A stretch of 64,000 nt of DNA from Candidatus Pacearchaeota archaeon (GTDB taxonomy: Archaea; Nanobdellota; Nanobdellia; Pacearchaeales; JAHJTO01). Shown here in pieces: positions 3,167 to 53,628 of this stretch; within the stretch, counting starts at the first letter, position 1, and the number at the start of each line of letters is the position of its first letter. Both the position numbers and the translations under genes were made by a program. The notes under the pieces are model-generated. The model did no database searches, was not told the origin of the DNA, and saw only the letters and a program-made list of their open reading frames with translations. The stretch spans positions 206,584 through 270,583 of the forward strand of contig JAWCMS010000001.1 of assembly GCA_038849525.1 (NCBI GenBank). The letters are read 5' to 3'.

Positions 3167-4255
3167 ATGTTAATAAATAGAAAAGCGCAAAACGTTCCTT
3201 TTTTAATCATTATAATAGGTCTGCTTTTAGCAATTTATGTTTATTTTATGCCTTTTGATGAAAAATGCAAATTAATCCCTAGTTTACCAGAATGTAAAAA
3301 AGAACTAAAAGTTAAAGTAATAGAGTTTATTCCAGGATTGCTTGAAGAACAAGAAACAGCAGCAAGATATTTTCTTCCAGATATCCAACTTTTTAGAAAA
3401 GATGTTGTAGATATAGCTACAGTACTTGAAAATACAAAAGTAAGTAGAGGATGGTTTTTTTCTTCTTCTGGCGAAGAGGTTTTTAATGCACAAGAAAATG
3501 CTAGAGAAGCAAAGTTATTCATTTTTGTAAACAAAGCTGAGGGAGGTCTTAAAATTTATATAAACAATAAAAAAATAGGTACTATTTATGGTGAAGGAGT
3601 ACATCAAATTTATTTAGATGTAAATGACATTAAAGAAACAAACAAAATAAAAGTTATTCCTACTATTCCATTATTCCCTTTCTTTTTAAATGATTACGAG
3701 ATAGGAAAAATAATACTAAAAGAGAATTATATTATCACAAACAATCGCGTTAATCTGCCATTTTTTATAACACAAAATAAAAATGACATTCTTGATATTA
3801 AACTAAATTTCAAAACAAGATGCTTTACTGAAGAAAACTTAAGCGTTTATATTAACTCTGAAAAAATTTTAGAAGATAAAGTATGTAGGGGATTTTCAAA
3901 AGATGTTTTTTCATTAATTAAATTTAATAATATGTCTGGAAATATAACTTTTGCAAGTGAAGGAAATTATATAATAAGGGAAATAACGCTTGATGTGAGG
4001 ATGAAAGAAAGAACATGGCCTATTTATTATTTCTACTTGGAAAAAATTGAAAAGCCGATGACTCTTAAATTAGAATTTAATGAAACTGGTTTAAAACAGC
4101 TTACGGCTTATGTTAATGGCAATGCGCTTTCTGTTGAAACAACTAAAAAAGAGTGGAAAACTATAATTAACAGGTATTTAATTGAAAATGCCACTAATTC
4201 TATCCTTTTAATCCCTAAAAAAACAGTAATTATAGAAAAATTAGAGGTTGAATAA
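3167..4255 (+). CDS. Secreted/surface protein with type IV pilin-like (class III) signal peptide
   Basis: N-terminus MLINRKAQ-NVPFLIIIIGLLLAIYVYF matches [KR][GA]Q + hydrophobic helix, the PibD cleavage motif. The rest is a beta-rich soluble domain with no recognisable homology. It is first in a four-gene co-directional cluster. Confidence 0.6.
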   Translation: MLINRKAQNVPFLIIIIGLLLAIYVYFMPFDEKCKLIPSLPECKKELKVKVIEFIPGLLEEQETAARYFLPDIQLFRKDVVDIATVLENTKVSRGWFFSSSGEEVFNAQENAREAKLFIFVNKAEGGLKIYINNKKIGTIYGEGVHQIYLDVNDIKETNKIKVIPTIPLFPFFLNDYEIGKIILKENYIITNNRVNLPFFITQNKNDILDIKLNFKTRCFTEENLSVYINSEKILEDKVCRGFSKDVFSLIKFNNMSGNITFASEGNYIIREITLDVRMKERTWPIYYFYLEKIEKPMTLKLEFNETGLKQLTAYVNGNALSVETTKKEWKTIINRYLIENATNSILLIPKKTVIIEKLEVE

Positions 4256-7218: not shown

Positions 7219-8427
7219 ATGATTTTTGCCGATTTACATATTCATTCAAGATTTTCAAGAGCGACTAGTAAGAATTTAAATTTAGAAAATATGGAAAAAT
7301 GGGCAAAAATAAAAGGTTTAAATTTGTTAGGGACGGGAGATTTTACTCATCCTAAGTGGATTTCTGAATTAAAAAGTAATTTAGAAGAAAATGATGGGAT
7401 TTTAAAGACAAAAACAGGGTTTTCTTTTATTCTCCAAACAGAGGTTTCTTTAATTTATAGTCAAGATGGAAAAGGAAGAAGAGTCCATTTATTAATCTTA
7501 GCTCCAGATTTTAGTGTTGCTGAACAAATAAATGACTATCTTAGTAAAAAAGGAAGACTCGATTATGATGGTAGACCGGTCTTTAATATTCCTTGCTATG
7601 AGCTAGTAGAAAATTTAATATCTATATCAAAAGATATTGAGATTATTCCAGCACATGCTTGGACACCATGGTTTGGTATATTCGGCTCTGTTACAGGATT
7701 TGATTCGATTGAAGAGGCTTTTAAGGACAAAGCAAAATACATTCATGCATTTGAAACAGGAATGAGCAGCGATCCTGAAATGAATTGGAGGTTGTCATCT
7801 TTGGATAAATATTCAATAGTATCATTTTCTGATTCTCATTCATTTTGGCCTTGGCGTTTGGGGAGGGAAGCTACAATTTTTGATTTTGATATAAATAATT
7901 TGAAATATAAAGATATAATAACTTCAATCAGAAATAATAAAATTAAAGCCACTATAGAAACCTTTCCTAGTTATGGAAAATATCATTTCGATGGTCATAG
8001 GAATTGTAATTTTTCATGCTCTCCTGAAGAAACTAAAAAATTAAATGGTATATGCCCTCTGTGTAAAAAATCTTTAATTATTGGAGTAATGAATAGAGTT
8101 GAAAGACTTGCAGATAGGCCAAAGAATTTTAAACCAAAAAATGCAAAACCCTTTTACAGTCTTTTACCTCTTTCAGAACTTATATCAGTTGTTAGAAAAA
8201 TTCCATTAGGAAGTAAAAAAATAATGGATGAATACACTAAAATGGTTGAGAAAAACTCTGAATTTGATATTTTACTTAATCTACAAAATGAACAACTCAT
8301 GAAAATTTCAGATGAAAAACTAATTAAATTAATAATGTTAAATAGAAATGGAAAAATAAAGATAAAACCTGGTTATGATGGTGTTTATGGAACTTTGATA
8401 ATTGAAGAACAAGCTAAACTTTTTTAA
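7219..8427 (+). CDS. PHP-domain protein of the endonuclease Q (EndoQ) family
   Basis: Begins MIFADLHIHSRFS (PHP metal-binding motif). It has further His/Asp motifs and a Cys4 zinc finger (CNFSC...CPLC) in the C-terminal half, as in EndoQ-family proteins (family placement from memory). Confidence 0.55.
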   Translation: MIFADLHIHSRFSRATSKNLNLENMEKWAKIKGLNLLGTGDFTHPKWISELKSNLEENDGILKTKTGFSFILQTEVSLIYSQDGKGRRVHLLILAPDFSVAEQINDYLSKKGRLDYDGRPVFNIPCYELVENLISISKDIEIIPAHAWTPWFGIFGSVTGFDSIEEAFKDKAKYIHAFETGMSSDPEMNWRLSSLDKYSIVSFSDSHSFWPWRLGREATIFDFDINNLKYKDIITSIRNNKIKATIETFPSYGKYHFDGHRNCNFSCSPEETKKLNGICPLCKKSLIIGVMNRVERLADRPKNFKPKNAKPFYSLLPLSELISVVRKIPLGSKKIMDEYTKMVEKNSEFDILLNLQNEQLMKISDEKLIKLIMLNRNGKIKIKPGYDGVYGTLIIEEQAKLF

Positions 8428-8527
8428 TCCATTTAAATTTATATATGGGAGAAAAAGTCTTTTCTTTACAATTCTCACAAATTTCTTTTAAAGTATAATT
8501 TTTACATTTTAGGCATTTTTTTATCAT
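8414..8527 (-). CDS. nop10: H/ACA ribonucleoprotein subunit Nop10 (short, 37 aa)
   Basis: Minus-strand ORF 2 nt downstream of aIF2alpha encoding MIKKCLKCKNYTLKEICENCKEKTFSPIYKFKWIKKV. This is a CxxC...CxxC zinc ribbon followed by the FSP..Y.KYR-like Nop10 signature. The aIF2alpha-nop10 operon arrangement is conserved in archaea. It is absent from the ORF track (shorter than 60 aa). Confidence 0.7.
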   Translation of the reverse strand: MIKKCLKCKNYTLKEICENCKEKTFSPIYKFKWIKKV

Positions 8528-21003: not shown

Positions 21004-21669
21004 TTAAACAATCATTGGCTGTTTTCCATTAAATTTGCCTTTATATCTTCCTCTTGATTCAACTTTTTTTAATTGTTCGAGAACTCCTAAACTTCCCACT
21101 TTTCTATAACCTTCGATAACCGCTGCAAACAAATCTTGCCAATTTTTAAAATGTCTGCTTTCTAGGGCCTGTCTTAACAAATGTAAATCTACAGCTTTGT
21201 CTTCTATTCTTGCCGATTGAAAACCTAATCCAAAATCTATAAAATAAATCTTATCATTTTTTAGTATTATATTAGAAGTTGTCAAGTCGCCATGAATTAT
21301 GTGATTATTATGAAGCTCTGCTATCTGTTCTCCAAGTTGATAGCAGATTTTTATCTGTTTTTTTAATGGTAGTCTATCTAAATTTTCAGATAATTTTTTA
21401 CCTTCGACATATTGCATTTCAATTTCTGTATTTTTTATCGAAAGAACTTTTGGAACATTTACTAATTTACTGGCTTTTTCGAGAAGTTTTGCTTCTCTTC
21501 TAGTTCTTTGAGTTCTAATTTTTTTATCAAGTTGTGGATGCCGATAGCCTTTTGTGATCCTCTTCTTTTTCAAAATTTTATTTTCTTTTATTAGAAGAGC
21601 TTCAGCACCACAAGCAATTATTTTTCTCATTATTAGAATGTAATTAGTAATTAATTCCTTTTTTTGCAA
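21004..21669 (-). CDS. bud32: KEOPS complex kinase Bud32 (PRPK)
   Basis: Small RIO-type kinase: GAEALLIK..., catalytic HGDLTTSNIIL and DFGLG motifs, about 220 aa. Confidence 0.8.
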   Translation of the reverse strand: MQKKELITNYILIMRKIIACGAEALLIKENKILKKKRITKGYRHPQLDKKIRTQRTRREAKLLEKASKLVNVPKVLSIKNTEIEMQYVEGKKLSENLDRLPLKKQIKICYQLGEQIAELHNNHIIHGDLTTSNIILKNDKIYFIDFGLGFQSARIEDKAVDLHLLRQALESRHFKNWQDLFAAVIEGYRKVGSLGVLEQLKKVESRGRYKGKFNGKQPMIV

Positions 21670-22150
21670 TCATCTTCTTTGGCATTTTCAATGCCTTAAT
21701 TTCATTAACATAGTCTGCAATCGAAATAAGCTTTTTTGAAGCATATCTCCCTGTAAGAACAATATCTGTTTTTGGGTGTTTTTTTTGATAATTTTTAATT
21801 TTATTTATGAAGTAATCTTCATCAAGAAGGTTCCATGCTACTGCCAATACAGACTCGTCAAGAATAAGTAAATCTGTTTTAAATTCTTCAGCATCTTTTA
21901 TTACAAATTCTAATCCCGCTCTTGAAATTTCTTTATCTTCTAAAGTAAGATTTTTTTTACCTTTCCAACCTTTTCTTCCAAGTTGAATTATCTTATAATT
22001 TTTATTTTTAAATTTGTACTCCCCTGTATTCTTCCAGTATTTCATGAATTGGGCAATATAAACTCTATGACCTTGCCCTAAAGAACGCAAAGCCAACCCT
22101 AATGCACTTGTTGTTTTTCCTGCTCCTGTTCCAGTATAAAGATATATCAT
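21644..22150 (-). CDS. cobO: ATP:cob(I)alamin adenosyltransferase (CobA/CobO family)
   Basis: P-loop YTGTGAGKTTSALGLALR...VYIAQFMK, LILDE and LTGR motifs as in CobO/BtuR. Its 5' end overlaps bud32 by 26 nt. Confidence 0.75.
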   Translation of the reverse strand: MIYLYTGTGAGKTTSALGLALRSLGQGHRVYIAQFMKYWKNTGEYKFKNKNYKIIQLGRKGWKGKKNLTLEDKEISRAGLEFVIKDAEEFKTDLLILDESVLAVAWNLLDEDYFINKIKNYQKKHPKTDIVLTGRYASKKLISIADYVNEIKALKMPKKMIAKKGINY

Positions 22151-22205
22151 TTTTTTATAACATTATATCAGTAAGATTTTATTAACATTTGCTTTTAGTT
22201 GCTTT

Positions 22206-24173
22206 TTATAACGGACATATTCCTTTAGGGCAACTTTGTGCAAATTGCGATTTGGCTATTAATCCTTCAGCGCCTTTATATAAAACTTGTTTTTCTTTGC
22301 TGCCATACCTATAAATTGTAATTCCTTTACATTTCAATTTCCATGCAAGTAAATAAATTTTTTTAATATCTTCCTTTGTTGCTGTCTGTGGGAGATTCAC
22401 TGTTTTACTTACTGCATTGTCTACATATTTTTGAAATACAGCTTGCATTTTTACATGCTGCTCAGGAGGGATCTCTAAAGCTGTAACAAATATTTTTTTA
22501 ATATCATTTGGAAGATTTGTTTCTTTTAAGGTCCCAGTTCTTATTATTTTCTTTATTATTTTCTCATTCCATAAATTTCTTTTAATTAGCTCATTTTGGA
22601 AAATTGGATTGATTTCAACTAATTTTTTGTTTTCAAGTACTTCTCTATAAAAAGCAAGAGCAAATAATGGTTCTATTCCTGAACTGCAACCAGCTATTAT
22701 TGAAATTGTTCCTGTTGGAGCAATTGTAAGCATAGTTGTATTTCTTTTTGATTTCTTTTTCGCTTCTTTCTTGATGAAAGATATGATCTTTTTGGCTAAT
22801 TTAAATGACTCTTCTGAACCATAAGGAATTTTCATTAATAAAAGCATATCTGCGAAACCCATTATTCCCAATCCTATTTTGCGGTTTTTTTTAGTTATTT
22901 TTTCTATTTCAGGTAGAGGATATTTATTTTTGTCAATTACATTATTAAGAAAAGAAACTCCTAAATGTGTAAGTTCTTTTAACTTATTCCAATCTATTAC
23001 TATCTTTCTTTTGACTTTTTTTAATACTTTTACTAAATTTATGCTTCCTAAATTACATGATTCATAAGGTAGCAAAGGAACTTCGCCGCATGGATTAGTA
23101 GCTTCTATTTTTTCTTTCAAAGGATTTTTTCTATTTATTTCATCAATGAATATTAACCCTGGATCACCTGTTTGCCAAGCATTCTCAACAATTAAATCAA
23201 AGAGTTGTTTTGCATTTATTTTTTTAACAACCTTATGGTTTCTTGGATTAATCAAATTGAAATTTTTATTTTTTTCAACTTTTTTAAGAAAATCATCTGT
23301 TACTGCAACTGAAATATTAAAATTACTTAGTTTCTTATCTTGTTTTGACATTATAAATTCAATAATGTCAGGATGATTGATATTTAATATCCCCATATTT
23401 GCACCTCTTCTTTTTCCCCCTTGTTTAATCGTTTCAGTAGTTGCATCATAAATTTTCATAAATGACACTGGACCACTTGCGATACCTTTTGTTGATTTTA
23501 CTATGTCTCCTTTAGGCCTTATTTTTGAAAAGCTAAAACCTGTCCCTCCTCCGCTTTGCTGTATTCTCACCATGTTATTGAGAGTCTTAAAGATACTTTC
23601 GAGAGAATCTTCTATAGGCAATACAAAGCAAGCAGACAATTGTCCAATTTTTGTGCCCGCATTCATTAATGTCGGGGAATTGGGCAAAAATTCAAGATTT
23701 TTCATCGCATTAAAAAATTTTTTCTTTTCCTTTTGATTATTCCCAATAAAATTCGCAACTCTTTTGAACATTTCTGTAGGAGTTTCGATTATATTTCCAT
23801 TGTTATCTTTCAATAAATAACGTTCTTCAAGAACTTTTAAAGCATTAACTGAGAGCTTTAAATCATCTTTGATTTTAAAATACTCTTTGATTTCTCTTGC
23901 ATGCCCTCTTGAACGCCTATATAAAGAATATACTTTAAATAATCTTGAATCATGTTTTTCAAGAACTTGTTCAACAATATCTTGGATTTCTTCTACCGAA
24001 GGAATTTCGATACCTTTAGCTTCAAGTTCAGAAATTACTTCATTTGTAAAAAGTTTGGATTTTTTTCTGTCTAAAGCATCAATAGCTTTTTGAGCTTTTT
24101 CTATTGCATTTTGAATTCTTTCAGCTTTAAAAGGTACCACCTCTCCTGTCCTCTTTATTACCTCTTTTATCAT
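22206..24173 (-). CDS. nrdJ: Class II (adenosylcobalamin-dependent) ribonucleotide reductase NrdJ with N-terminal ATP-cone
   Basis: ATP-cone at the N-terminus (VIKRTGEVVPFKAERIQNAI). Active-site NPCGE motif typical of class II enzymes. C-terminal redox Cys pair (CPKGICPL). Confidence 0.85.
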   Translation of the reverse strand: MIKEVIKRTGEVVPFKAERIQNAIEKAQKAIDALDRKKSKLFTNEVISELEAKGIEIPSVEEIQDIVEQVLEKHDSRLFKVYSLYRRSRGHAREIKEYFKIKDDLKLSVNALKVLEERYLLKDNNGNIIETPTEMFKRVANFIGNNQKEKKKFFNAMKNLEFLPNSPTLMNAGTKIGQLSACFVLPIEDSLESIFKTLNNMVRIQQSGGGTGFSFSKIRPKGDIVKSTKGIASGPVSFMKIYDATTETIKQGGKRRGANMGILNINHPDIIEFIMSKQDKKLSNFNISVAVTDDFLKKVEKNKNFNLINPRNHKVVKKINAKQLFDLIVENAWQTGDPGLIFIDEINRKNPLKEKIEATNPCGEVPLLPYESCNLGSINLVKVLKKVKRKIVIDWNKLKELTHLGVSFLNNVIDKNKYPLPEIEKITKKNRKIGLGIMGFADMLLLMKIPYGSEESFKLAKKIISFIKKEAKKKSKRNTTMLTIAPTGTISIIAGCSSGIEPLFALAFYREVLENKKLVEINPIFQNELIKRNLWNEKIIKKIIRTGTLKETNLPNDIKKIFVTALEIPPEQHVKMQAVFQKYVDNAVSKTVNLPQTATKEDIKKIYLLAWKLKCKGITIYRYGSKEKQVLYKGAEGLIAKSQFAQSCPKGICPL

Positions 24174-24223: not shown

Positions 24224-25585
24224 TTAAAATTTGAATTTTCCTTTAAATTTTTTTGCTAAATCTATCATCTGCTTTTTTGACATTTTTGAGATATCTAAAT
24301 TTTGCATATTTTTTGCTTGTTTATAAAAAGATTTAATTAATTTGTATTGGCTGAGAAGTTCTCTGACATCGGAAGATGAAATATTTGAACCTTTTGCTAT
24401 CCTTGCAATTCTTGTTCCTGTAATTATTTCAGGATTTTCTATCTCTTCTTTTGTCATGCTATCAATTGCATACTTAAATTTTTTCAATTTTTCTTCTTGA
24501 ACGCTTATAAGATTTTCAGGAATTTTTATTTTTCCCATTCCTGGAATCATTTCTGCTATTTTTCCTAATGGACCCATTGATTGCATTGTTTTTAGTTGCT
24601 CGTATAAATCAAGTAAGGTAAATTTTCCTTCTTCTAATCTTTTTTCAAGTTTTTCTTTTTCTTCATTGCTTATAGCAAGTCTTGCCTTTTCAATTAGAGA
24701 CTCTATATCTCCCATTCCAAGCATTCTTGAAACAAAAGCAGTTGGATTGAAAATCTCAATATCGTTGATATGCTCACCTGTACCAATGAAAAGCACAGGT
24801 GCATTTGTTTCATTGCATGCTGTCAAGACTCCCCCTCCCTTTGCGGTACCATCCATTCTTGTGATAATAACTCCAGAAATACCAATTATTTTTTGAAATT
24901 CTGAGGCTTGTTTTTTAGCTGCTTGCCCAATATCAGCAGGCATTACTAAAATAACATCATCTGGCCGAATTGCAGATTTTAAATCTTTTATTTCTTTTAT
25001 TAATTCATTATCTAAGACATCTCTTCCTGCGGTATCTATCATAATTATATCATACTTTTCAAGCTGATTTGAAAACTGATTCCATATCTTTATAGGATTT
25101 TTTTCAGTTTTGTTAACAAAAACAGGAATTTTTATCTGTTTTGCTAATTGCTCAATTTGTTCTGAAGCAGCAGGACGATGAGTATCTAAGCCAAGTATTG
25201 CAACCTTGAATCCTCGTTTTGCATAATAATTTGCAAGTTTTGCAATAGTTGTTGTCTTTCCGCTTCCATATAAACCGAGAAACATCATTTTTTCTTTATT
25301 TTTTAATTTAAGTTCGTGTTTTTCTTTTCCAAGAATGTTTACAAGTTCATCATGTATTAACTTAATAAGATGCTCTTTTTTTTCTAAAGTTGATTTTTCT
25401 TCTATTGCTGTTTTTCTTATTTTTTCACTTAACTGGAAAACAAGTTCAACGTTGACGTCTGCTTCCAGAAGTGCACGTTGAATTTCTTTAATTATATCAT
25501 CGATGAGTTTTTTGTCTATAAAAATCGTTTCTGTTAATTTCGATATTGCATTTTTAAATGCAGAGCCTATTTTTTCTAGCACCAT
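24224..25585 (-). CDS. srp54: Signal recognition particle protein SRP54
   Basis: NG domain with GLYGSGKTTT and DTAGR motifs. Met-rich M domain (MQSMGPLGKIAEMIPGMGK). Confidence 0.95.
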   Translation of the reverse strand: MVLEKIGSAFKNAISKLTETIFIDKKLIDDIIKEIQRALLEADVNVELVFQLSEKIRKTAIEEKSTLEKKEHLIKLIHDELVNILGKEKHELKLKNKEKMMFLGLYGSGKTTTIAKLANYYAKRGFKVAILGLDTHRPAASEQIEQLAKQIKIPVFVNKTEKNPIKIWNQFSNQLEKYDIIMIDTAGRDVLDNELIKEIKDLKSAIRPDDVILVMPADIGQAAKKQASEFQKIIGISGVIITRMDGTAKGGGVLTACNETNAPVLFIGTGEHINDIEIFNPTAFVSRMLGMGDIESLIEKARLAISNEEKEKLEKRLEEGKFTLLDLYEQLKTMQSMGPLGKIAEMIPGMGKIKIPENLISVQEEKLKKFKYAIDSMTKEEIENPEIITGTRIARIAKGSNISSSDVRELLSQYKLIKSFYKQAKNMQNLDISKMSKKQMIDLAKKFKGKFKF

Positions 25586-25734
25586 ATTTATTATTGAATG
25601 TCAGTCATCAAAAAACCTATAACATTTTTGGTTTTCAAAACTTTTAAGGATTTTTGATTTATAAAGATAGTGAATTTCAAATATCCTTTAATTTCTATAT
25701 CTCTAAATATTCCTTAAAATTAATTAAATCAGAA

Positions 25735-25878
25735 TTATCTCATTATTTCATCAATATCAAAAAATTTTGTTTTTATTTCTATATTTTCAATATATGCTGT
25801 ACCACAAAAAGGGCATACTTTTGTTTCAGAATTAGATTGCCATAAATAACCACATTTTTTGCATTTCAGTTTTGGCAT
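25735..25878 (-). CDS. Small C4 zinc-ribbon protein (47 aa), paralog A
   Basis: Minus-strand ORF MPKLKCKKCGYLWQSNSETKVCPFCGTAYIENIEIKTKFFDIDEIMR, with CxxC-x13-CPxCG and an acidic tail. Absent from the ORF track (shorter than 60 aa). It overlaps the spurious plus-strand ORF 25654..25845. Confidence 0.55.
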   Translation of the reverse strand: MPKLKCKKCGYLWQSNSETKVCPFCGTAYIENIEIKTKFFDIDEIMR

Positions 25879-25901
25879 TTTTTATATAGCTAATAGATAG
25901 A

Positions 25902-26051
25902 TTATTTCAGCATGTCATTTATATCTTTGAAGTTAGCATCAGCATTGATTTCTTCTAACGTTTCTTCTCTTCCACAAAATGGACATAATCTAGGTATTCT
26001 CGATGTCACTTTGAAAACATGCTTGCATCGATAGCATCTTACATCTGTCAT
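25902..26051 (-). CDS. Small C4 zinc-ribbon protein (49 aa), paralog B (RpoP-like pattern)
   Basis: MTDVRCYRCKHVFKVTSRIPRLCPFCGREETLEEINADANFKDINDMLK. It has the same CxxC...CPFCG core and the same acidic F.DI(N/D)(E/D)(I/M)(M/L) tail as paralog A. The Y.C..C...R.CP.CG pattern resembles RNA polymerase subunit P, but the basic C-tail is lacking. Confidence 0.55.
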   Translation of the reverse strand: MTDVRCYRCKHVFKVTSRIPRLCPFCGREETLEEINADANFKDINDMLK

Positions 26052-26127
26052 ATTTTATTAGCATTATTAAGTAATATAAATTTTGTTATAATTGAAAAAT
26101 ATAAACCAAAAAATAATAATATCTGAA

Positions 26128-27207
26128 TTAATTAAAAATAGAGTTTATTATTTTGTTTTTATCAAAAATTTCCAAATCATCATAATTTTGGCCTGTACCT
26201 ATATAAAGAATAGGTTTTCCTGTGACTTTTGATACAGAAATCATCGCACCACCTTTTTCATCTATATCTGCTTTTGTTAGGATTATTGCATCGATACCTA
26301 TTGACTTATTGAATGCCATAGCTTGCTCTACTACGTCATTTCCAGTTATGCTTTCTCCAACAAATATCTTCAAATCTGCTTTTGCTACACGAGAAATTTT
26401 TTCCATTTCTTTCATTAAATCAGCTTTTGTATGCATTCTACCAGCTGTATCTATCAAAACAACATCTTTTCCAGCTGCCTTTGCATGTGCTATTGCATCA
26501 AAAGCCACTGCTGCAGGATCTGCACCATACTGATGTTTTATAATATTAATCCTTAACTTATTAGCATGTTTTTCTAGTTGTTCTATACTTGCTGCCCTGA
26601 AGGTATCTGATGCTGCAAGAACACAGCTTATTTTATTTTTTTGTAGTAAATGTGCAAGTTTTGCAATAGTTGTTGTTTTTCCAGAGCCATTAATGCCAAA
26701 AAAGATTATGACAAATGGCTTTTTTGATTCTTTTATCTTTGTTATTAAATCGAAAGGTTCTATAAGTATTCTTTCAAGAGCTTCTTTTAATGAATCTTTT
26801 ATTTTTTCATCAATTTCTTTTTTACTTATTGGCTTATTTAGTAATTCATTTTTAATTGATTTTTTGATTTCGTCTATTACAGAAACAGCTACATTATTTT
26901 CAAGCAGTATTATTTCAAGATTATGAAAAATCTCATTAAAATCTTCTTCATTTAATTTTGTTGTCGTAAATTTTTCTTTTATTAAACCAAAAAAACTTTT
27001 TTTCTCTTCTTTATTTTCTATTTCTTTACATGTTTTTTCTATTCCTTCTTTTAGTTTTTTTTCTTTTTCTTCAAGCTCTTTTAACTTTTTTTCTTTTTTT
27101 TCTTCTTCTAACTTGAGAATTTTCTTTTCTTCTTCTGCTTTTTCGTCTATATCTTTTTTTAATTTAGATAATACATTTTTTAATTTTTCTTTAAATAACT
27201 TGAACAT
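26128..27207 (-). CDS. ftsY: Signal recognition particle receptor FtsY
   Basis: KE-rich N-terminal region, then an NG domain with GINGSGKTTT and DTAGR motifs. Confidence 0.95.
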   Translation of the reverse strand: MFKLFKEKLKNVLSKLKKDIDEKAEEEKKILKLEEEKKEKKLKELEEKEKKLKEGIEKTCKEIENKEEKKSFFGLIKEKFTTTKLNEEDFNEIFHNLEIILLENNVAVSVIDEIKKSIKNELLNKPISKKEIDEKIKDSLKEALERILIEPFDLITKIKESKKPFVIIFFGINGSGKTTTIAKLAHLLQKNKISCVLAASDTFRAASIEQLEKHANKLRINIIKHQYGADPAAVAFDAIAHAKAAGKDVVLIDTAGRMHTKADLMKEMEKISRVAKADLKIFVGESITGNDVVEQAMAFNKSIGIDAIILTKADIDEKGGAMISVSKVTGKPILYIGTGQNYDDLEIFDKNKIINSIFN

Positions 27208-30080: not shown

Positions 30081-30205
30081 AGCCTCCAGAGGGATTTGAA
30101 CCCTCGACCCTCGGTTGTTATGAAACAAGTTTCATGAACAAAAAAATTTAATTTGTTTTCTTGTCTTTACAAAACCGATGCTCTAAACCGCTGAGCTATG
30201 GAGGC
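30081..30205 (-). tRNA. tRNA-Thr: tRNA-Thr(TGT) with about 52-nt intron at canonical position
   Basis: Exons GCCTCCATAGCTCAGCGGTTTAGAGCATCGGTTTTGTAA / ACCGAGGGTCGAGGGTTCAAATCCCTCTGGAGGCT. The intervening AGACAAG...CATGAAACTTGTTTCATAACA contains a hairpin consistent with a BHB substrate. Confidence 0.75.
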
Positions 30206-30303: not shown

Positions 30304-32208
30304 ATGGTGAAGGGCCAGATTGGTTTATTTGTAATTATAGCTATTTTAATAATAGGTGCAGTTAGTTTAGTAATTTATTACAAAAGTGAAACTGAAAAAA
30401 GAGAAGCATTTTCAGAAGAAAAAACATTAAGAGCTGTTTCAGAAAAATTAAGGCCTGTCGAAGAATCTTTTTTAAATTGTCTTAAGGAAAAAGCAAGAGA
30501 TGCTTTAGACATAATAGGGCAACAGGCAGGTTATATTGAACTGCCAGCTGGCGAGATTGCTTCAAGTTACATGCCTTTTTCTGACAAGCTTAACTTTTTA
30601 GGAACTAAAGTTCCTTATTGGTGGTACATAAGCGAAAATAATATTGTTCAAGAAAAAGTGCCAAAAATTTCTGATATTGAAAAAGAAATTGAAGATTATA
30701 TAAATATTAACTCTGCTGATTGCGACTTAAGTAATTTTTTCACAGAAGGATTTATAATAAATGCTGAAAAAAACACTACAACTGATGTGATAATAAAAGA
30801 TGATGAAGTTAATTTTGAAGTAATTAAAAGAATTTCAATAAGCTATGGTAATACTACTGGAATTATTGAAAAACATAGATTTTCATTACCGATAAAACTT
30901 GGAAGAATTTATAAAAATGCTTTGGCAGTTTATGATGCAGAACAAAAAAGTCTTTTTCTTGAGAATTACAGTGTTGATGTAATAGCTCTTTATGCTCCAT
31001 TATCTGGATTTTATTTAAGCTGTGCGCCGAAAATGTGGAATAAAGCAGATGTTGAAAAAAATATAAAGGAAGCATTAGAAGGAAACATTGGAGCATTGAA
31101 ACTTAAAGGAGGTTATTATAGACTTGCAAAACCTGAAAATAAATATTTTATACAAAATATTAATGCTGAAAAAGGAATAAATGTAAACTTTTTTTATAGC
31201 AAAGAATGGCCTACAAAAATCGAAATTGAACCGAGCAAAGAAGGAATTATGGTTGCAGAGCCAATAGGAATGCAAGAAGGCATAGGAGCATTAGGTTTTT
31301 GTTTCATTTCTTATCATTTTGTTTATGATTTAGCGTATCCTGTAATGGTGCAGTTTTATGATGTAAATGAGAATTATCTTTTCCAATTTCCCATTATTGT
31401 TAGCGTTTTTAGAAACAAGCCAAGGGAAGCAGAACTTTCATTTTCACTTTCCTCTGAAAGAGAAATCTGTAAAAGAAAAATTCAACAAGAAACCGTAAAT
31501 GTTCAAGACATATATGGAAAACCTGTTGAAGCAAAAATAAGCTTTAAGTGTTTAGACACTGTTTGTGAGATTGGAAAAGCCGAATTAAGCGATAAAGGAG
31601 CACTATTAATAGAAAAATTTCCACAATGCATTAATGGGTTTATTATAGCAGAAGCGGAAGGATATGCGAGAGCGAAACAACAAGTTTCAACTAATAAAGA
31701 AGGAGTGTTTACTATAATAATGCAACCATTGCATGAATTAAAAGTTGATATTCAAGCAGAAGGAGTAGAAAGTATAAAAAATAGTAAGGTTGTTCTTGTC
31801 GCAAGCAAGCAGGATTATATGACTACCTTAATTTGGCCTGAACAAAACAAGATAAAACTGGCAGAGGGAAATTATACCATGAAGGCATGGATGCTTAAAA
31901 ATGGAACTTTTAAGCTATCTGAACAAACAACTGAAAAATGCATCAAAGTACCAGTAGGAGGAATAGCCGGAATTTTTGGAGCTCGAAAAGAAGAATGCTT
32001 TGATTTAAATGTTCCGGAAATTGCTTTAAATGAATTGCCAGTAGGGGGAGCATTTTTTAATTATAGTGTAAGTGAAGAAGAGCTCTCAAGAGCAAATGAA
32101 ATTACTTTCTATGTTAATAGCTGGACTGTTCCTCAGACACAAGAACAATTCATTGAAATTTACAATCTCATTGAAAATGAGGCTGTTAAAACCCCTGCAT
32201 TAAAATGA
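30304..32208 (+). CDS. Large (634 aa) secreted protein with canonical type IV pilin-like class III signal peptide (MVKGQ-IGLFVIIAILIIGAV)
   Basis: The N-terminus is a textbook archaeal prepilin signal: KGQ followed by about 20 hydrophobic residues. The remainder is a hydrophilic beta-rich domain with no recognisable family. ATGA overlap with the following giant gene. Confidence 0.7.
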   Translation: MVKGQIGLFVIIAILIIGAVSLVIYYKSETEKREAFSEEKTLRAVSEKLRPVEESFLNCLKEKARDALDIIGQQAGYIELPAGEIASSYMPFSDKLNFLGTKVPYWWYISENNIVQEKVPKISDIEKEIEDYININSADCDLSNFFTEGFIINAEKNTTTDVIIKDDEVNFEVIKRISISYGNTTGIIEKHRFSLPIKLGRIYKNALAVYDAEQKSLFLENYSVDVIALYAPLSGFYLSCAPKMWNKADVEKNIKEALEGNIGALKLKGGYYRLAKPENKYFIQNINAEKGINVNFFYSKEWPTKIEIEPSKEGIMVAEPIGMQEGIGALGFCFISYHFVYDLAYPVMVQFYDVNENYLFQFPIIVSVFRNKPREAELSFSLSSEREICKRKIQQETVNVQDIYGKPVEAKISFKCLDTVCEIGKAELSDKGALLIEKFPQCINGFIIAEAEGYARAKQQVSTNKEGVFTIIMQPLHELKVDIQAEGVESIKNSKVVLVASKQDYMTTLIWPEQNKIKLAEGNYTMKAWMLKNGTFKLSEQTTEKCIKVPVGGIAGIFGARKEECFDLNVPEIALNELPVGGAFFNYSVSEEELSRANEITFYVNSWTVPQTQEQFIEIYNLIENEAVKTPALK

Positions 32209-35200
32209 AAATGACCAACAAAAAAACATTGATAATTGTAATTTTATCGGTTTTGACTTTATTGCTAATTTCTACCTCATCAGCTCAGATTACTTCAGAA
32301 TATATTTATGGCAGAAATATAAGTGAAAGCTGTACAGAAGGGCAAGATTTTATTATAGAGGTGCCACCTGGAGCTTGCCAGCCCGCTGTTGTTAGAAGTG
32401 ATTTATTAGAAGAACAAAGTGTCCCTGTCTATTGCAACATAATAGGCATTAAAGTAAATCCGCTTATAGATGTCCCTTACATAAGAAGTATTACCCCTTT
32501 AGGATTCACTTCGACTAAAGATGTAGCTGGAATCCATTTTTATCCTGCAAAGGCATCTTTAAGAGCACTTCCTGGAATGATCCCGGAGGGGACTCCTTCT
32601 TCGATAAATAATCTTGGCTGGCTTGTTGTGCTATTAAAACAAAAAACAACAGAAAAAGAAATTCCTGAAAAAATTGAATTAAACTTAACAGCAAGAATAA
32701 AATATGACATGCAGAATAGTTTTGGAATAGCTGAAAGTGAATTAACGCTGACTGAAATGAATGAAAATGAATGGGAAAAGGTTTCAGAAAGATATTCTTT
32801 TTGGAGAGGCAAAGGGTATGTAAGAGCAGCAAGAATTGATGAAAACACTGCTTCTTTTGTTGTGTATGATAGCTCTAAAAGAAGCAAACAGACAATAAAT
32901 GTTAAAGTAGGTGAAACTTCGCAGCCAGCTTATTTAACAGGGTTTTATTGTGCCGGGGGAGTTAAACTTAATCTTGAAAAAATTGATTTTCCATCGGTCA
33001 AAGCAAGACTTAATGTAAACGGAATTGAAAGATTATTAAGCGAGAATATGCAGCTTTATGAAGGAAGTAAATGTAGAATAAGCAAAATAAATTCAGGAAT
33101 CTCTCCAAACATTGAAATCTCGTGTCCAGAAGAAAAATATACTTTAAGTCTTAATCCGAGAGAAGCAAGCTTAAATGTAAATGGCAAAGAGAAAAGAGTA
33201 AAGATAGGAGAAAAAATTAGTGATGGAGAAACAAGTAAAGTATTTTTGGGATATGTAGGAATTGAAAATGATACAAAATATATTGTTGTATTCCAAGGGG
33301 ATGAGAAAGATGCTTATAGAAAAATAATAGAGATAAAGAAAGGAGTAGAGCTTTTACATGCAAAAGGAAAATCTATCAATGAACTTAAATTAGAAAATGT
33401 CGAGATAATAAGTAATGATAGTGAAAAAGAAGTAGATGGAATCAAAATAAAAATTATTGGAGATTTAATAACATTAAAAACAAAAATTTATTCTGAAAAC
33501 ATAGAAGATAACTTTAGAAAGGCTATTGCTTCGGCAAAGGATGTTGCAGACAAATACGGTAATGTTAAAGATGACATTGGAGACATTTATGGATTAAAAG
33601 CATTAAAAGATGCAGCTAATCTTGCACGAGAACTTGGAAAAGAGGAAGAGCAGGTTGATTTACTTAGAGAAATAATAAAAAAATATTCTAATGAAAATAT
33701 ATCAGAAGAGAAAATTAAACTTGATCGGCTTATTTCTTCAGAATCTTCCAGTATCTCTTTTTTCGATAAAAGTACTGGACAAAGCGTTTTTGTTGTTTTA
33801 GAGGATATTAATATTCCTGACAAAACAGATGCTTTTGCAACCATTATCATAGATGGCGAGCAAACAGATAAAGGGGTTGGAGATGCAATAACTAACATTT
33901 GGTATATCAGTAAAATAACTGATAGATGCATTAATGTCGCAAGTGTAAGAAAAGATGAGGCAGAAAAAACTCTATGTAAAGATTCCAGCTTTCTTTTAGT
34001 GGATTCTGCAGGTAAATCAGTAAATGTAAAACTTTTAGGGACTAAATTGAAAAAAGAGGCTTATGTAAGGCTTATTCCTTTTTCGAAAGAAGGTGAAACA
34101 ATAACTAATTTTTCTGTTCAGATAGGTATTGAAAAAAGAGCTGTCCAGCTTTCTCCAGAACAAATGAAAGAGCATATAAGAGCAGTGAATGAGATTTCTA
34201 TGCAACTTGAAAATTTCATTAATCAGCTTTCTTTTACAGTTAAGCAGTGGAAACTTGCTTGTTTTGCCACACAGGCAGGACTTGCAGTAAAAAATCTGGT
34301 TCTTACTCCGCAAGGAGAGGCGAGAAGAGCTGCGATGCATGGAATGACTATTAATGGAAAACAATATGGGGGATGGACTGATTTCTGTAAAGCAAAAATA
34401 GGAGATCCAAGTGTAGGGGGGAAATTTAGAGACTTGGATGCTTGTTATAGGTATTATGCTGACCAGATAAATGCTGATGTTAGTGTTATAAAAAAATCAA
34501 TTGAAGAGACAAATGATTATGTGAAGAACATAAAAGCACAAAATTTAGTTAATGGTAAACTTAAAGAAGAGGCTTATATCAAAAATGCTTTAAATAATTC
34601 TGGCAATGAGAGATTAAAAGAACTTGTTCGAAACGAAAATTTTAATGAATTAATTAGCAGAGGCATAATTACAAAAGAAGATGTGAAAGAGATGATATTC
34701 TTGCACAAAATACAGGAAAAATGTAAGAATCCAAACAGTCCGCTATGTAAAGGCGAAAAAGATGTCAAGAACTTTTCAACCATCTTTGATGATCTCTTAA
34801 ATTATAATTTTAACCGCCTTAGTCAGATTGATACTCTTAAGAAAAGCACTAGCGGTGCAATAGGGCCGCCAGAATTCTGGGAAACTCCTGCTGATTTTGC
34901 TGTTAGCCCAATCATGATAAAAGCAAGAGTTTACGATGCAAATTCATTTGAAAGAGTTTTAGGTAATGATGCTAATAGACTCTCACAAATTATGGATGAA
35001 TTAAAATCAAATAAAAATTATAGAGTCTCTGCAGGCGTTAAAAATAATGAAGCATTTTTTGTACTTCTTGAAAGAACTATTGATGGCAGATTTAAGCCTG
35101 TAAAAGTTTATAACAAATCATCAGGCGAGGATATCAGTAGCGCTAAACTTGGTGACATTAGCAATTTCAGAATAGATGGAATAGATACAAATGACTGGAA

Positions 35201-37112
35201 ATATTCTTTTTCGAGAGAAGTAAAACCAGAAGTAAGATTCTGGGAAGAAGGAAAATACAAAGGATTTGCAGCAATCGTACCTTTTGAAATTAATGGAGCA
35301 GGATATTATGTGAAAATGAACAAGCAAGACTATGAAGAAAATGGATTTCCAAGATACTTGAACATTTACAATGTTGGAAGCAATGGAAGAATCGACGAGG
35401 GAAGTGGAGATGATATTTCTGTTCAGAGTCTTGCTGTCTCACAAATTACCTCTGAAATGGAACTTGCAAATAAAGCATTACAAGCAGTAAGAAATGCAAA
35501 TGCTGGCTATGGAAGTAGAACAATAAGCATTCTTGGTAAAATGTATGGGGTAGGCAAAGCAATGATTGATGTTCCTGCATATCAATGTCAGGACTTTATG
35601 TCTCCTTCTGATTGTTCTATTCTTTTTAATGTTTGTGATCCTGTTCTTTGCCCACCTTCGAGATGCAATTTAGGCGGAACTTATCAAACCGCAAATGTTG
35701 TGCAGTCAGGAGTCATTGGTTCAATTGTCTTATGTTCAAAAAATTCTGTTTTATTTGGAGGAGATGTTATTCTTCCTGTATGCTTAACTGGATTGAACGC
35801 AGGATTGCAAAATATAAATACTGTTTTAAAATCATATAGGGACTGCCTAAATGAGAGTCTTACAACAGGAAAAAATGTCGGTATTTGCGATGAGATATAT
35901 TCAATTTATCTTTGCGAGCTTACATGGAGAGAAGTTCTCCCTTTCATAACCTATGGAATTCCAAACATTGTTACTTCAATGCTGCATCAAGGAGGAGGAG
36001 AATACTTGAATTTCCAGAGTAACTGGAATAATTTTGTAGGCACTATAAATTACTTTACTTCACAATATGCTGAAACAGCTTTTGAAGCTTTTAAAATAAG
36101 AAGCACTATGCAGGTAGGAACAGAAGTTTGCAAATTATTCTTCTCATTAAGATATCCTGATTTGATTGAATTAGTTGATAGGCTGACAAAACCTGAGTCC
36201 CCTCCACAATTTTTTGCATATTTTGATGAGATTTCATTTACTTCAGTAACTGTTCCTGCTACTTCTCAATACAAGATTTATTATCATATTTATGCTGGTG
36301 AAGATAAGGGAATAAGTTATAATGTTTATCTTAGCTCTCCGCCTTATGTTACAGGAATTTATATACCCCCTATACAATTCATAGATGCGGGATTTTTGCC
36401 GCAAGGACAATATAAATCAGAAACCAAAGATATTTTAGCGCCTGCAGGATATAAGGAACTGTGTATTGAAATAGATGGAAAAAGAGAGTGCGGTTTTGGA
36501 AGAGTAGGAACACAATTTTCATTGAATTATCTTGCTGACAAGTATGTGCAACAACAACTAACTGAAAATATTGATAGCGAAAAGGAATGTATTTCAGGCT
36601 CTGTAAGTTTATTGCCGTTGGTTCCAGGATTGCATCCTGGACAAGAAGGAATAGTTGAAGCAATAAAACCTTCTTTGGAAAGAAGAGGGGTGACAAGAAT
36701 ATGTTCAAAAGATAATCCTGGCAAGGGTGTTAATGAAGCAAAGTGGGATTTTGTGGGATGGTGTAATAAAAATGAAAAATTTGCATGTTGGGTTGATAGA
36801 GAAAGTGTCGAAGGAGCAATAAAAGACTTGGGAATTTTAAATGAAACTTTAAATTATTCTGCAAGTCTTGTTTCTGCATATTTAGAAGAAGAAGGAATGT
36901 GGACTAAAGAAAAAGCTGCGAAAGAAATTAACACAGCTAAAACTCAATTGACTAATGCTAAAAATGTAGGTAATTGTTTAGATGCAGTAAAGAAGTTTTC
37001 AGAGATAGAAGATAATAGTTTCTTTTTAAACCAAAAAGCAGAAGCTGCTTTAGGAATTGCTGCGAGCTATGCAAAAAAAGTAAGATTAGAGGTGGAAAGC
37101 TATAAAAAATAA
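32205..37112 (+). CDS. Giant (1635 aa) secreted protein with Sec-type signal peptide and cysteine-rich C-terminal module
   Basis: Signal peptide MKMTNKKTLIIVILSVLTLLLISTSSA-Q. A long hydrophilic body. More than 30 Cys residues are concentrated in roughly the last 450 residues (e.g. CQDFMSPSDC, CDPVLCPPSRC). Confidence 0.7.
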   Translation: MKMTNKKTLIIVILSVLTLLLISTSSAQITSEYIYGRNISESCTEGQDFIIEVPPGACQPAVVRSDLLEEQSVPVYCNIIGIKVNPLIDVPYIRSITPLGFTSTKDVAGIHFYPAKASLRALPGMIPEGTPSSINNLGWLVVLLKQKTTEKEIPEKIELNLTARIKYDMQNSFGIAESELTLTEMNENEWEKVSERYSFWRGKGYVRAARIDENTASFVVYDSSKRSKQTINVKVGETSQPAYLTGFYCAGGVKLNLEKIDFPSVKARLNVNGIERLLSENMQLYEGSKCRISKINSGISPNIEISCPEEKYTLSLNPREASLNVNGKEKRVKIGEKISDGETSKVFLGYVGIENDTKYIVVFQGDEKDAYRKIIEIKKGVELLHAKGKSINELKLENVEIISNDSEKEVDGIKIKIIGDLITLKTKIYSENIEDNFRKAIASAKDVADKYGNVKDDIGDIYGLKALKDAANLARELGKEEEQVDLLREIIKKYSNENISEEKIKLDRLISSESSSISFFDKSTGQSVFVVLEDINIPDKTDAFATIIIDGEQTDKGVGDAITNIWYISKITDRCINVASVRKDEAEKTLCKDSSFLLVDSAGKSVNVKLLGTKLKKEAYVRLIPFSKEGETITNFSVQIGIEKRAVQLSPEQMKEHIRAVNEISMQLENFINQLSFTVKQWKLACFATQAGLAVKNLVLTPQGEARRAAMHGMTINGKQYGGWTDFCKAKIGDPSVGGKFRDLDACYRYYADQINADVSVIKKSIEETNDYVKNIKAQNLVNGKLKEEAYIKNALNNSGNERLKELVRNENFNELISRGIITKEDVKEMIFLHKIQEKCKNPNSPLCKGEKDVKNFSTIFDDLLNYNFNRLSQIDTLKKSTSGAIGPPEFWETPADFAVSPIMIKARVYDANSFERVLGNDANRLSQIMDELKSNKNYRVSAGVKNNEAFFVLLERTIDGRFKPVKVYNKSSGEDISSAKLGDISNFRIDGIDTNDWKYSFSREVKPEVRFWEEGKYKGFAAIVPFEINGAGYYVKMNKQDYEENGFPRYLNIYNVGSNGRIDEGSGDDISVQSLAVSQITSEMELANKALQAVRNANAGYGSRTISILGKMYGVGKAMIDVPAYQCQDFMSPSDCSILFNVCDPVLCPPSRCNLGGTYQTANVVQSGVIGSIVLCSKNSVLFGGDVILPVCLTGLNAGLQNINTVLKSYRDCLNESLTTGKNVGICDEIYSIYLCELTWREVLPFITYGIPNIVTSMLHQGGGEYLNFQSNWNNFVGTINYFTSQYAETAFEAFKIRSTMQVGTEVCKLFFSLRYPDLIELVDRLTKPESPPQFFAYFDEISFTSVTVPATSQYKIYYHIYAGEDKGISYNVYLSSPPYVTGIYIPPIQFIDAGFLPQGQYKSETKDILAPAGYKELCIEIDGKRECGFGRVGTQFSLNYLADKYVQQQLTENIDSEKECISGSVSLLPLVPGLHPGQEGIVEAIKPSLERRGVTRICSKDNPGKGVNEAKWDFVGWCNKNEKFACWVDRESVEGAIKDLGILNETLNYSASLVSAYLEEEGMWTKEKAAKEINTAKTQLTNAKNVGNCLDAVKKFSEIEDNSFFLNQKAEAALGIAASYAKKVRLEVESYKK

Positions 37113-53511: not shown

Positions 53512-53520
53512 TTTTATAAA

Positions 53521-53628
53521 CGGGCCTGGTAGGATTCGAACCCACGACCCTCTGCTTTCTTATTCCATTTTCAGCCGATTAGAAGGCAGATGCTCTATCC
53601 AGGCTGAGCTACAGGCCCATTTTTTAAA
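53521..53628 (-). tRNA. tRNA-Arg: tRNA-Arg(TCT) with about 24-nt intron
   Basis: Exons GGGCCTGTAGCTCAGCCTGGATAGAGCATCTGCCTTCTAA / GCAGAGGGTCGTGGGTTCGAATCCTACCAGGCCCG. Intron TCGGCTGAAAATGGAATAAGAAA after the anticodon loop. Confidence 0.75.

Follow-up and report, generated by a model that had tools for sequence, protein, structure and literature searches.

The window analysed here is a stretch of 64,000 nucleotides (nt) from a Candidatus Pacearchaeota archaeon, with a G+C content of 29.6%, and the subject of this analysis is a pair of very small genes, A and B, which lie on its minus strand between the genes of the two signal recognition particle (SRP) GTPases. Gene B (25902..26051) is an open reading frame (ORF) of 49 residues, MTDVRCYRCKHVFKVTSRIPRLCPFCGREETLEEINADANFKDINDMLK, and gene A (25735..25878), which follows on the same strand after a 23-nt spacer (25879..25901), is an ORF of 47 residues, MPKLKCKKCGYLWQSNSETKVCPFCGTAYIENIEIKTKFFDIDEIMR. 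Upstream of B lies ftsY, encoding the SRP receptor (26128..27207, minus strand), with Pfam matches to PF00448 (241.7 bits) and PF02881, i.e., the SRP54_N and GTPase domains; downstream, 149 nt from the end of A, lies srp54 (24224..25585, minus strand), which carries the N, G and M/SRP_SPB domains (PF00448, PF02978 and PF02881). Both small ORFs have exact matches in GenBank (QW041_01450 for A and QW041_01455 for B), where each is annotated as a "hypothetical protein" on a 400,615-bp contig of a Candidatus Pacearchaeota metagenome-assembled genome. The two genes are not newly found, as this public annotation came before our analysis; an earlier note, made from the letters of the window, had presented them as missed by the ORF track, which is true of the first-stage track and not of GenBank. 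The plus-strand ORF which that note had held responsible for masking one of the genes does exist (25654..25845, 63 residues, TTG start) and overlaps gene A in antisense.

Proteins A and B can be aligned from end to end with 29% identity (BLASTP E = 8e-9), and by this alignment, together with their shared relatives, they are paralogs arranged in tandem, as the earlier note had proposed. Each has four cysteines, at C6, C9, C22 and C25 in A (CxxC-x12-CPFCG, with the knuckles CKKCG and CPFCG) and at C6, C9, C23 and C26 in B (CxxC-x13-CPFCG, with the knuckle CYRCK, a CxxC without glycine, and CPFCG); the motif had been recognised correctly in the note, with spacings of 13 and 14 that are one residue too long in both cases. 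The acidic tail it had described as common to both proteins was given correctly: the shared C-terminus reads F-x-D-I-[DN]-[DE]-[IM]-[ML]-[KR], A ending in FFDIDEIMR and B in FKDINDMLK. The two halves of the proteins differ sharply in charge, with an isoelectric point (pI) of 9.1 for the basic N-terminal half and 4.5 for the acidic C-terminal half of A, and 9.9 and 4.1 for those of B. AlphaFold2 models built from family alignments contain in both proteins a three-stranded ribbon followed by a short C-terminal helix, with strands at residues 3–6, 12–14 and 30–33 and a helix at 40–45 in A (predicted local distance difference test, pLDDT, of 68), and strands at 2–6, 12–15 and 32–35 and a helix at 41–48 in B (pLDDT 76). 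The tail is modelled with a pLDDT of 54–61, and this low value would fit a segment that folds upon binding. Apart from A and B, no ORF of the window ends in the tail motif, so there is no sign of a docking motif shared with other proteins encoded in the window.

When A or B served as the single query, word-indexed searches returned nothing beyond the proteins themselves. A HMMER profile built of only A and B, searched against 1.84 billion proteins, matched 93 of them at E ≤ 1e-3, among them many full-length proteins of 43–55 residues with E-values from 4.9e-13 to 1e-4 (e.g., P0004 at 4.9e-13 and P0006 at 3.5e-11). A profile of 16 sequences gave 95 proteins, which are labelled "hypothetical", carry no label, or bear inconsistent automatic labels (rubrerythrin, zinc-ribbon/helix-turn-helix regulator, RpoP, Nob1). 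Where an organism is given for these 95 proteins, it is named as Pacearchaeota, Woesearchaeota or Nanoarchaeota, and by these names the family is so far restricted to DPANN archaea. Its members, about 95 proteins of 43–64 residues, share the consensus MxKLxCxKCNFxWxxxxxxIPxxCPYCGKE-(~10)-FxDVDELLK, in which the four cysteines and the proline of CP[YF]C are invariant, and the proline three residues before the third cysteine and the aspartate of the tail are nearly so. The layout is constant: a K/R-rich Cys4 rubredoxin-like ribbon over approximately residues 1–30 (CxxC-x11-15-CP[YF]C[GS]), a variable linker of about 10 residues, and, at the very end of the protein, an acidic amphipathic tail of the form [FL]-x-D-[VI]-[DN]-[DE]-[LMI]-[LM]-[KR]. 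In more distant members the ribbon persists and the C-terminus is still acidic and amphipathic, with a motif that is less strict, e.g., ...SAEELLxE. The ribbon profile also matched 38 separate stretches of one protein of 3179 residues (P0003, E = 3e-48), which is apparently an array of Cys4 ribbons. Our literature search found no publication describing the DPANN ribbon family, and nothing relevant on SRP19 in DPANN archaea or on the SRP in Pacearchaeota.

A metagenome scan with the family alignment recovered closer relatives of the locus, the contigs L013 and L014, and also L017 and L019 (a further match, L021, was a false positive, being the C-terminal ribbon of a bacterial protein). L013 and L014 have the layout ftsY-B-A-srp54 of the window, with FtsY and SRP54 proteins about 78–79% identical to those of the window; B and A lie at 3346–3498 and 3495–3644 in L013 and at 1688–1846 and 1843–1992 in L014, so relatives do retain the ORF pair whose absence the earlier note had named as grounds for giving it up. 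Orthologs of A are 74% (L013) and 62% (L014) identical to the protein of the window, and those of B (L013, L014, L017 and L019) are 71–73% identical, with 0.14–0.15 nonsynonymous differences per site (pN) versus 0.79–0.93 synonymous ones (pS). Between the window and its relatives in general, pS is 0.75–0.93, i.e., synonymous sites are saturated, and pN is 0.14–0.19; in closer pairs, where dS is unsaturated, dN/dS is 0.06–0.18. For gene A, pN/pS is lower in the sense frame (0.22) than in any of the other five, of which the mirror antisense frame has 0.35 and the remaining four have 1.0–1.9 (the three antisense frames give 0.35, 1.32 and 1.89); for gene B, where the sense frame alone was scored, pN/pS is 0.18. 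The synonymous-rate comparison suggested in the note thus gives ratios of about 0.2 and reading frames conserved at the protein level, and by these substitution patterns A and B are genuine protein-coding genes under purifying selection. Because the strongest constraint sits in the sense frame of the opposite gene A, the plus-strand ORF 25654..25845 is probably spurious. The duplication which gave A and B precedes the split of the lineages of the window, L013 and L014.

In the spacer between ftsY and B a single piece is conserved, a TATA-like box, which both L013 and L014 carry as TTTAAAT at an equal distance from B, and the rest diverges. In the window the TATA-box-like element is TTTATATT (26073..26080, minus strand, read as 26080..26073); it starts 29 nt before the start codon (ATG) of B and would be the archaeal promoter of a B-A transcript that is nearly leaderless. 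Conservation of this box suggests that B and A form a two-gene unit of their own, and the 4-nt overlap of the stop codon of B with the start codon of A (ATGA) in L013 and L014 suggests co-transcription and translational coupling of the pair; the TATA box in front of B probably drives both genes. The srp54 gene of L014 also has its own TATA-like box, about 25–34 nt upstream of the start. No Rfam match was found in the 149-nt spacer between A and srp54, which folds no better than shuffled sequence, and a scan for sigma-70 promoters and for terminators was uninformative, which is no surprise in an archaeon.

The note had also remarked on conserved placement of the pair between the SRP genes. In nine distinct Pacearchaeota contig groups, the window and eight others, ftsY and srp54 do indeed have at least one family member between them. 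Two copies are present in the window, in L013 and L014, and in L011 (two copies of 52 residues), and one copy in L002/L003/L006/L015, L004/L005, L007/L008/L020, L016 and L018; L019 (ftsY-B at a contig end) and L017 (B-srp54) are partial cases. Across the contigs with ftsY-ribbon-srp54, SRP54 is 64–79% identical to that of the window, and the gene downstream of srp54 varies by contig (ribonucleotide reductase, pyruvate kinase, Thy1 or a RIO-like kinase). A third type of paralog lies just downstream of srp54 and convergent to it in two lineages, L002/L006/L015 (5602–5757, 5692–5847 and 5102–5257, respectively, all on the minus strand) and L017 (916–1068, plus strand), with the pattern IKLxCxNCxYxWK..SE[ED]KIPRxCPYCxKxTVDW..G..FxDV..xLK, so that srp54 is surrounded by up to three family members, which fits local duplication.

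The placement noted earlier is therefore real, with the caveat that it is no proof of a functional link to the SRP, because ftsY-ribbon-srp54 sits within a larger conserved block, S3Ae-L44e-GINS51-apgM / ftsY-ribbon-srp54. As the upstream part S3Ae-L44e-GINS51-apgM is equally conserved, the linkage of the ribbon genes to the SRP genes is no tighter than to these unrelated genes. Other subfamilies and distant members of the family lie 6–21 nt upstream of unrelated genes, encoding a metallo-beta-lactamase (MBL)-fold hydrolase (L009, L010 and L012), STT3/AglB (L022) and adenylate kinase (L023), and another distant member follows panD (L024 and L025). Members whose tail reads [IL]L[KN]D[VI]DSMLE form a subfamily that is always found 6–18 nt upstream of the gene for a 222-residue MBL-fold hydrolase (PF12706/PF13483), at 4001–4150 in L009, 629–778 in L010 and 4001–4150 in L012, with no SRP genes nearby. 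All ftsY/srp54 contigs in the count were retrieved via the small ribbon protein and are a biased sample; a scan of genome contigs with SRP54 as the query gave a single locus, L001, in which a Micrarchaeia ftsY has neither srp54 nor a ribbon gene adjacent to it. Inherited synteny with local duplication is the simplest explanation for the placement of the ribbon genes next to the SRP genes.

Taking the anatomy, the family and the gene orders together, we lean, by a modest degree, towards reading A and B, the two tandem members of a family so far known only from DPANN archaea, as small two-part adaptor or regulatory proteins. In this reading the basic knuckle, stabilised by a metal, would touch an RNA, DNA or protein surface, and the acidic tail, being flexible, would act as a short linear docking motif which folds into a short helix when it meets its partner. 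First candidates for such a partner would be SRP54, FtsY or the SRP RNA, and the SRP machinery is placed first because of the address of the genes and because of two precedents, the bacterial protein YlxM and the FlhG helix acting on FlhF. Several points weigh against the adaptor reading. It rests on the anatomy of the sequences and on AlphaFold2 models of moderate confidence, with the contig sample biased towards the small protein. Metal binding by A and B is assumed from the Cys4 pattern, and several haloarchaeal proteins with C(P)XCG motifs are reported not to bind zinc (PMC11241148). Finally, the strict retention of at least one copy in every contig which has both ftsY and srp54 could reflect something beyond inherited synteny.

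The alternative that stands closest to the adaptor reading is that A and B are dedicated accessory factors of the SRP pathway, a positional analogue of the bacterial arrangement ftsY-ylxM-ffh. The ribbon would bind SRP RNA or SRP54, and the acidic helix would modulate the GTPase cycle of SRP54 and FtsY or replace the assembly help given by SRP19-type proteins. For such a role speak the recurrence of ftsY-ribbon-srp54 in the nine contig groups in spite of the SRP54 divergence and the changing genes downstream, and the third paralog type, which abuts srp54 as well. Precedents also exist. YlxM (UPF0122) is a protein of about 110 residues of the helix-turn-helix type. Like A and B, it is small and encoded with the SRP GTPase genes; it is, on the other hand, unrelated to them in sequence and fold and belongs to a different domain of life. 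In Gram-positive bacteria the ylxM gene accompanies ftsY and ffh, and its product binds both Ffh and the SRP RNA and modulates the hydrolysis of GTP (PMC8546722); a short helix of FlhG with the motif DQAxxLR activates the SRP-type GTPase FlhF (bioRxiv 10.1101/2022.03.19.484964). Archaeal SRP19, for its part, is reported to be dispensable (PMC6098224).

Against an SRP-specific role stand the synteny of the whole block, with linkage to the SRP genes no tighter than to apgM or GINS51, the apparent promoter of B and the TATA box of srp54 in L014, the distant members beside the MBL-fold hydrolase, STT3, adenylate kinase and panD genes away from any SRP gene, and the sampling through the small protein. 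Furthermore, neither SRP19 nor YlxM/UPF0122 is among the Pfam and NCBIfam matches at E ≤ 10 (for A in Pfam, among the best 25 of 38 families, the rest having E > 0.08), and the tail does not have the glutamine which is critical in FlhG. We therefore regard dedicated SRP accessory factors as unlikely, although well ahead of the other alternatives, and keep them at this low level because synteny alone cannot separate an SRP role from inheritance. A more specific version, by analogy with these bacterial systems, is slightly less likely again: here the ribbon proteins would be an archaeal regulator of the SRP cycle, the ribbon binding SRP RNA or the M or NG domains of SRP54, and the D-[VI]-D-[DE]-L-L-[KR] helix sitting at the interface of the SRP54 and FtsY NG domains and tuning GTP hydrolysis. 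If this were true, the ribbon proteins would be the functional analogue of YlxM of Firmicutes or of the FlhG helix on FlhF, and these archaea, whose genomes are small, might thereby make up for a reduced SRP RNA or for the lack of SRP19.

Comparison with curated families gave no assignment, in agreement with the earlier decision to leave the identity of the proteins open: in Pfam and NCBIfam every model stays below its cutoff with A, with B and with each of 48 family members. Most frequent among the sub-threshold matches of the 48 are the zinc site of HypA (40/48), the PF0610 ribbon (17/48) and the rubredoxin-like domain of rubrerythrin (16/48, at E ≤ 0.01). In Foldseek searches against the PDB the best E-value was 0.095, and the top matches were generic rubredoxin-like knuckles (rubrerythrin, reverse gyrase, MCM, rubredoxin and Rpb12). 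These results bear on the idea that A and B are iron-binding mini-rubredoxins, that is, a stand-alone version of the C-terminal domain of rubrerythrin, which would carry electrons as small soluble-type shuttles, their tail serving for contact with a redox partner. RUBY_RBDX (PF21349) scores 23.2 bits on A, against its gathering cutoff of 26.5; the spacing CxxC-x12-CPxC with the proline at −3 is identical to that of the PF21349 domain; searches by sequence and by fold both place rubrerythrin and rubredoxins near the top; and several members are labelled "rubrerythrin" by pipelines of the Joint Genome Institute (JGI). The rubrerythrin domain and the PF0610 ribbon (PF23470, PDB 2gmg), which share the Cys4 spacing and the proline before the third cysteine and give the top sub-threshold matches in Pfam, PDB and Foldseek searches, are however domains of larger proteins, whereas the DPANN ribbon stands alone with a tail of its own. 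The scores are all below the cutoff and no better than those for zinc sites (HypA, the PF0610 ribbon, Rpo12), no redox enzyme is consistently adjacent, and the ribbon half is strongly basic compared with typical acidic rubredoxins, which makes an electron carrier improbable.

Resemblance of B to RNA polymerase subunit P, and its want of the basic tail of that subunit, had both been seen in the note and hold, the resemblance as a weak match of the family profile over the ribbon. When a profile of 43 family sequences is used, the best match in the PDB is Sulfolobus Rpo12/RpoP (E = 1.3e-4, 24.8 bits), which aligns its residues 1–32, beginning MAKYRCGKC...P.VRCPYCG, to profile positions 1–30; in the search with the two-sequence profile of A and B, Rpo12 had E = 2.8. 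One of the proteins, most likely B, might on this basis be a divergent Rpo12/RpoP or a derivative associated with RNA polymerase, and the length of about 48 residues is similar too. No rpoP-like ORF was found elsewhere in the 64-kb window. In Rpo12/Rpb12 the ribbon is followed by a conserved basic segment, which anchors the subunit in RNA polymerase. The likeness of the family to this subunit (length, and the N-terminal ribbon M-A-K-Y-R-C-x-K-C...P-x-x-R-C-P-Y-C-G) stops after the fourth cysteine, and the remaining part is acidic and predicted to be helical (pI of the C-terminal halves 4.1–4.5). With B, the RpoP equivalog model of NCBIfam (PRK00398) reaches 11.8 bits, its cutoff being 72, and A is not among its listed matches; there are two to three paralogs per genome in different neighbourhoods, and the members which the JGI labels as RpoP carry the acidic tail too. 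We consequently reject the identity with RpoP and hold a diverged RpoP, or a polymerase-associated derivative, to be very improbable.

The other candidates which the note had listed for profile searches fare no better, all lying far below cutoff as RpoP does. Spt4 is rejected at 12.7–14.9 bits against a cutoff of 50. A ribosomal or translational zinc ribbon (L40e, L37ae, S27ae, S27e) that has diverged past recognition would agree with small Cys4 ribbons, with the S3Ae and L44e genes a few kb away, and with weak sub-threshold matches to eL43/L37ae and eS27 (E = 0.004–0.02, in PDB searches only). Nevertheless, S27ae reaches just 10.3 bits against a cutoff of 54, L40e gives no match, the pI of the whole proteins is 7.7–8.4 with one acidic half as opposed to strongly basic ribosomal ribbons, and the family is restricted to DPANN archaea with several paralogs per genome, so a ribosomal origin is more remote still. 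Two further candidates were considered for the tail. Carrier proteins of the LysW type combine a ribbon with an acidic tail, which ends in a motif of the EDWGE type; the tails here do not end in this way, the PDB match to LysW has E = 0.13–0.94, and this candidate was rejected. The PIP box, by which proteins bind PCNA, is suggested by the hydrophobic spacing 1-4-7-8 of the tail, whose sequence contains neither the glutamine nor the aromatic pair. As for chance ORFs, which DNA of this low G+C content could supply given the many short ORFs on both strands, they are practically excluded because selection on the orthologs and the sense-frame tests show constraint at the protein level, in a family of about 95 members with four invariant cysteines.

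Small archaeal proteins of the Cys4 C(P)XCG kind are already known, and the DPANN family with its acidic tail is outside every curated family that we searched. Brz of Halobacterium and HVO_0758 and HVO_2753 of Haloferax volcanii are one-domain C(P)XCG zinc-finger micro-proteins (PMC2253796, PMC6562870, PMC10716476, PMC11241148). To the class as outlined in two of these sources (PMC11241148, PMC10716476), A belongs by its knuckles CKKCG and CPFCG and B by CPFCG. The haloarchaeal proteins and ours have in common that they are archaeal, shorter than 70 residues, built on two CxxC/CPxCG knuckles, mostly unassigned or regulatory, and easily overlooked. Past the knuckles no homology to the haloarchaeal proteins can be detected, and the DPANN family differs from them by its conserved acidic motif at the C-terminus, by its phyletic range and by its fixed place between ftsY and srp54.

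Several other features of the window are worth recording. Farther neighbours of the ribbon genes, by Pfam, include a ribonucleotide reductase with an ATP cone, cofactor-independent phosphoglycerate mutase, GINS51 and S3Ae. The ATP-cone ribonucleotide reductase is directly followed by the corrinoid adenosyltransferase CobA/BtuR (PF02572; both within 21644..24173, minus strand), and the pair looks like a B12-dependent ribonucleotide reductase module. In FtsY (26128..27207, minus strand), the N-terminal approximately 70 residues before the NG domains are an extremely K/E-rich low-complexity segment (EEKKILKLEEEKKEKKLKELEEKEKKLKEG). A Cys4 ORF of 37 residues at 8414..8527 (minus strand), MIKKCLKCKNYTLKEICENCKEKTFSPIYKFKWIKKV, encodes a short Nop10: it scores 32.4 bits with PF04135, whose cutoff is 27.2, and matches the 52-position model in the ribbon part only. 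Two tRNA genes on the minus strand are over-long, one of 125 nt at 30081..30205, which is detected by Rfam and not by ARAGORN, and one of 100 nt at 53520..53619, to which ARAGORN assigns no anticodon; both are presumably intron-bearing archaeal tRNAs. An ORF of 1635 residues (32205..37112, plus strand) is not matched by any Pfam model at E ≤ 1e-3.

Few parts of archaeal genomes are understood as poorly as their micro-proteins, and the genomes of DPANN archaea are reduced, so a gene of 50 residues which is retained there, and even duplicated, likely matters to the cell. The family defined here combines a Cys4 ribbon with a C-terminal docking motif, has a reproducible address beside the two SRP GTPases, and offers a signature which annotation pipelines can use. 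Should the link to the SRP be wrong, it would simply be another family of small zinc-ribbon proteins; as it stands, it yields the testable hypothesis that archaeal co-translational targeting may have a third protein player.

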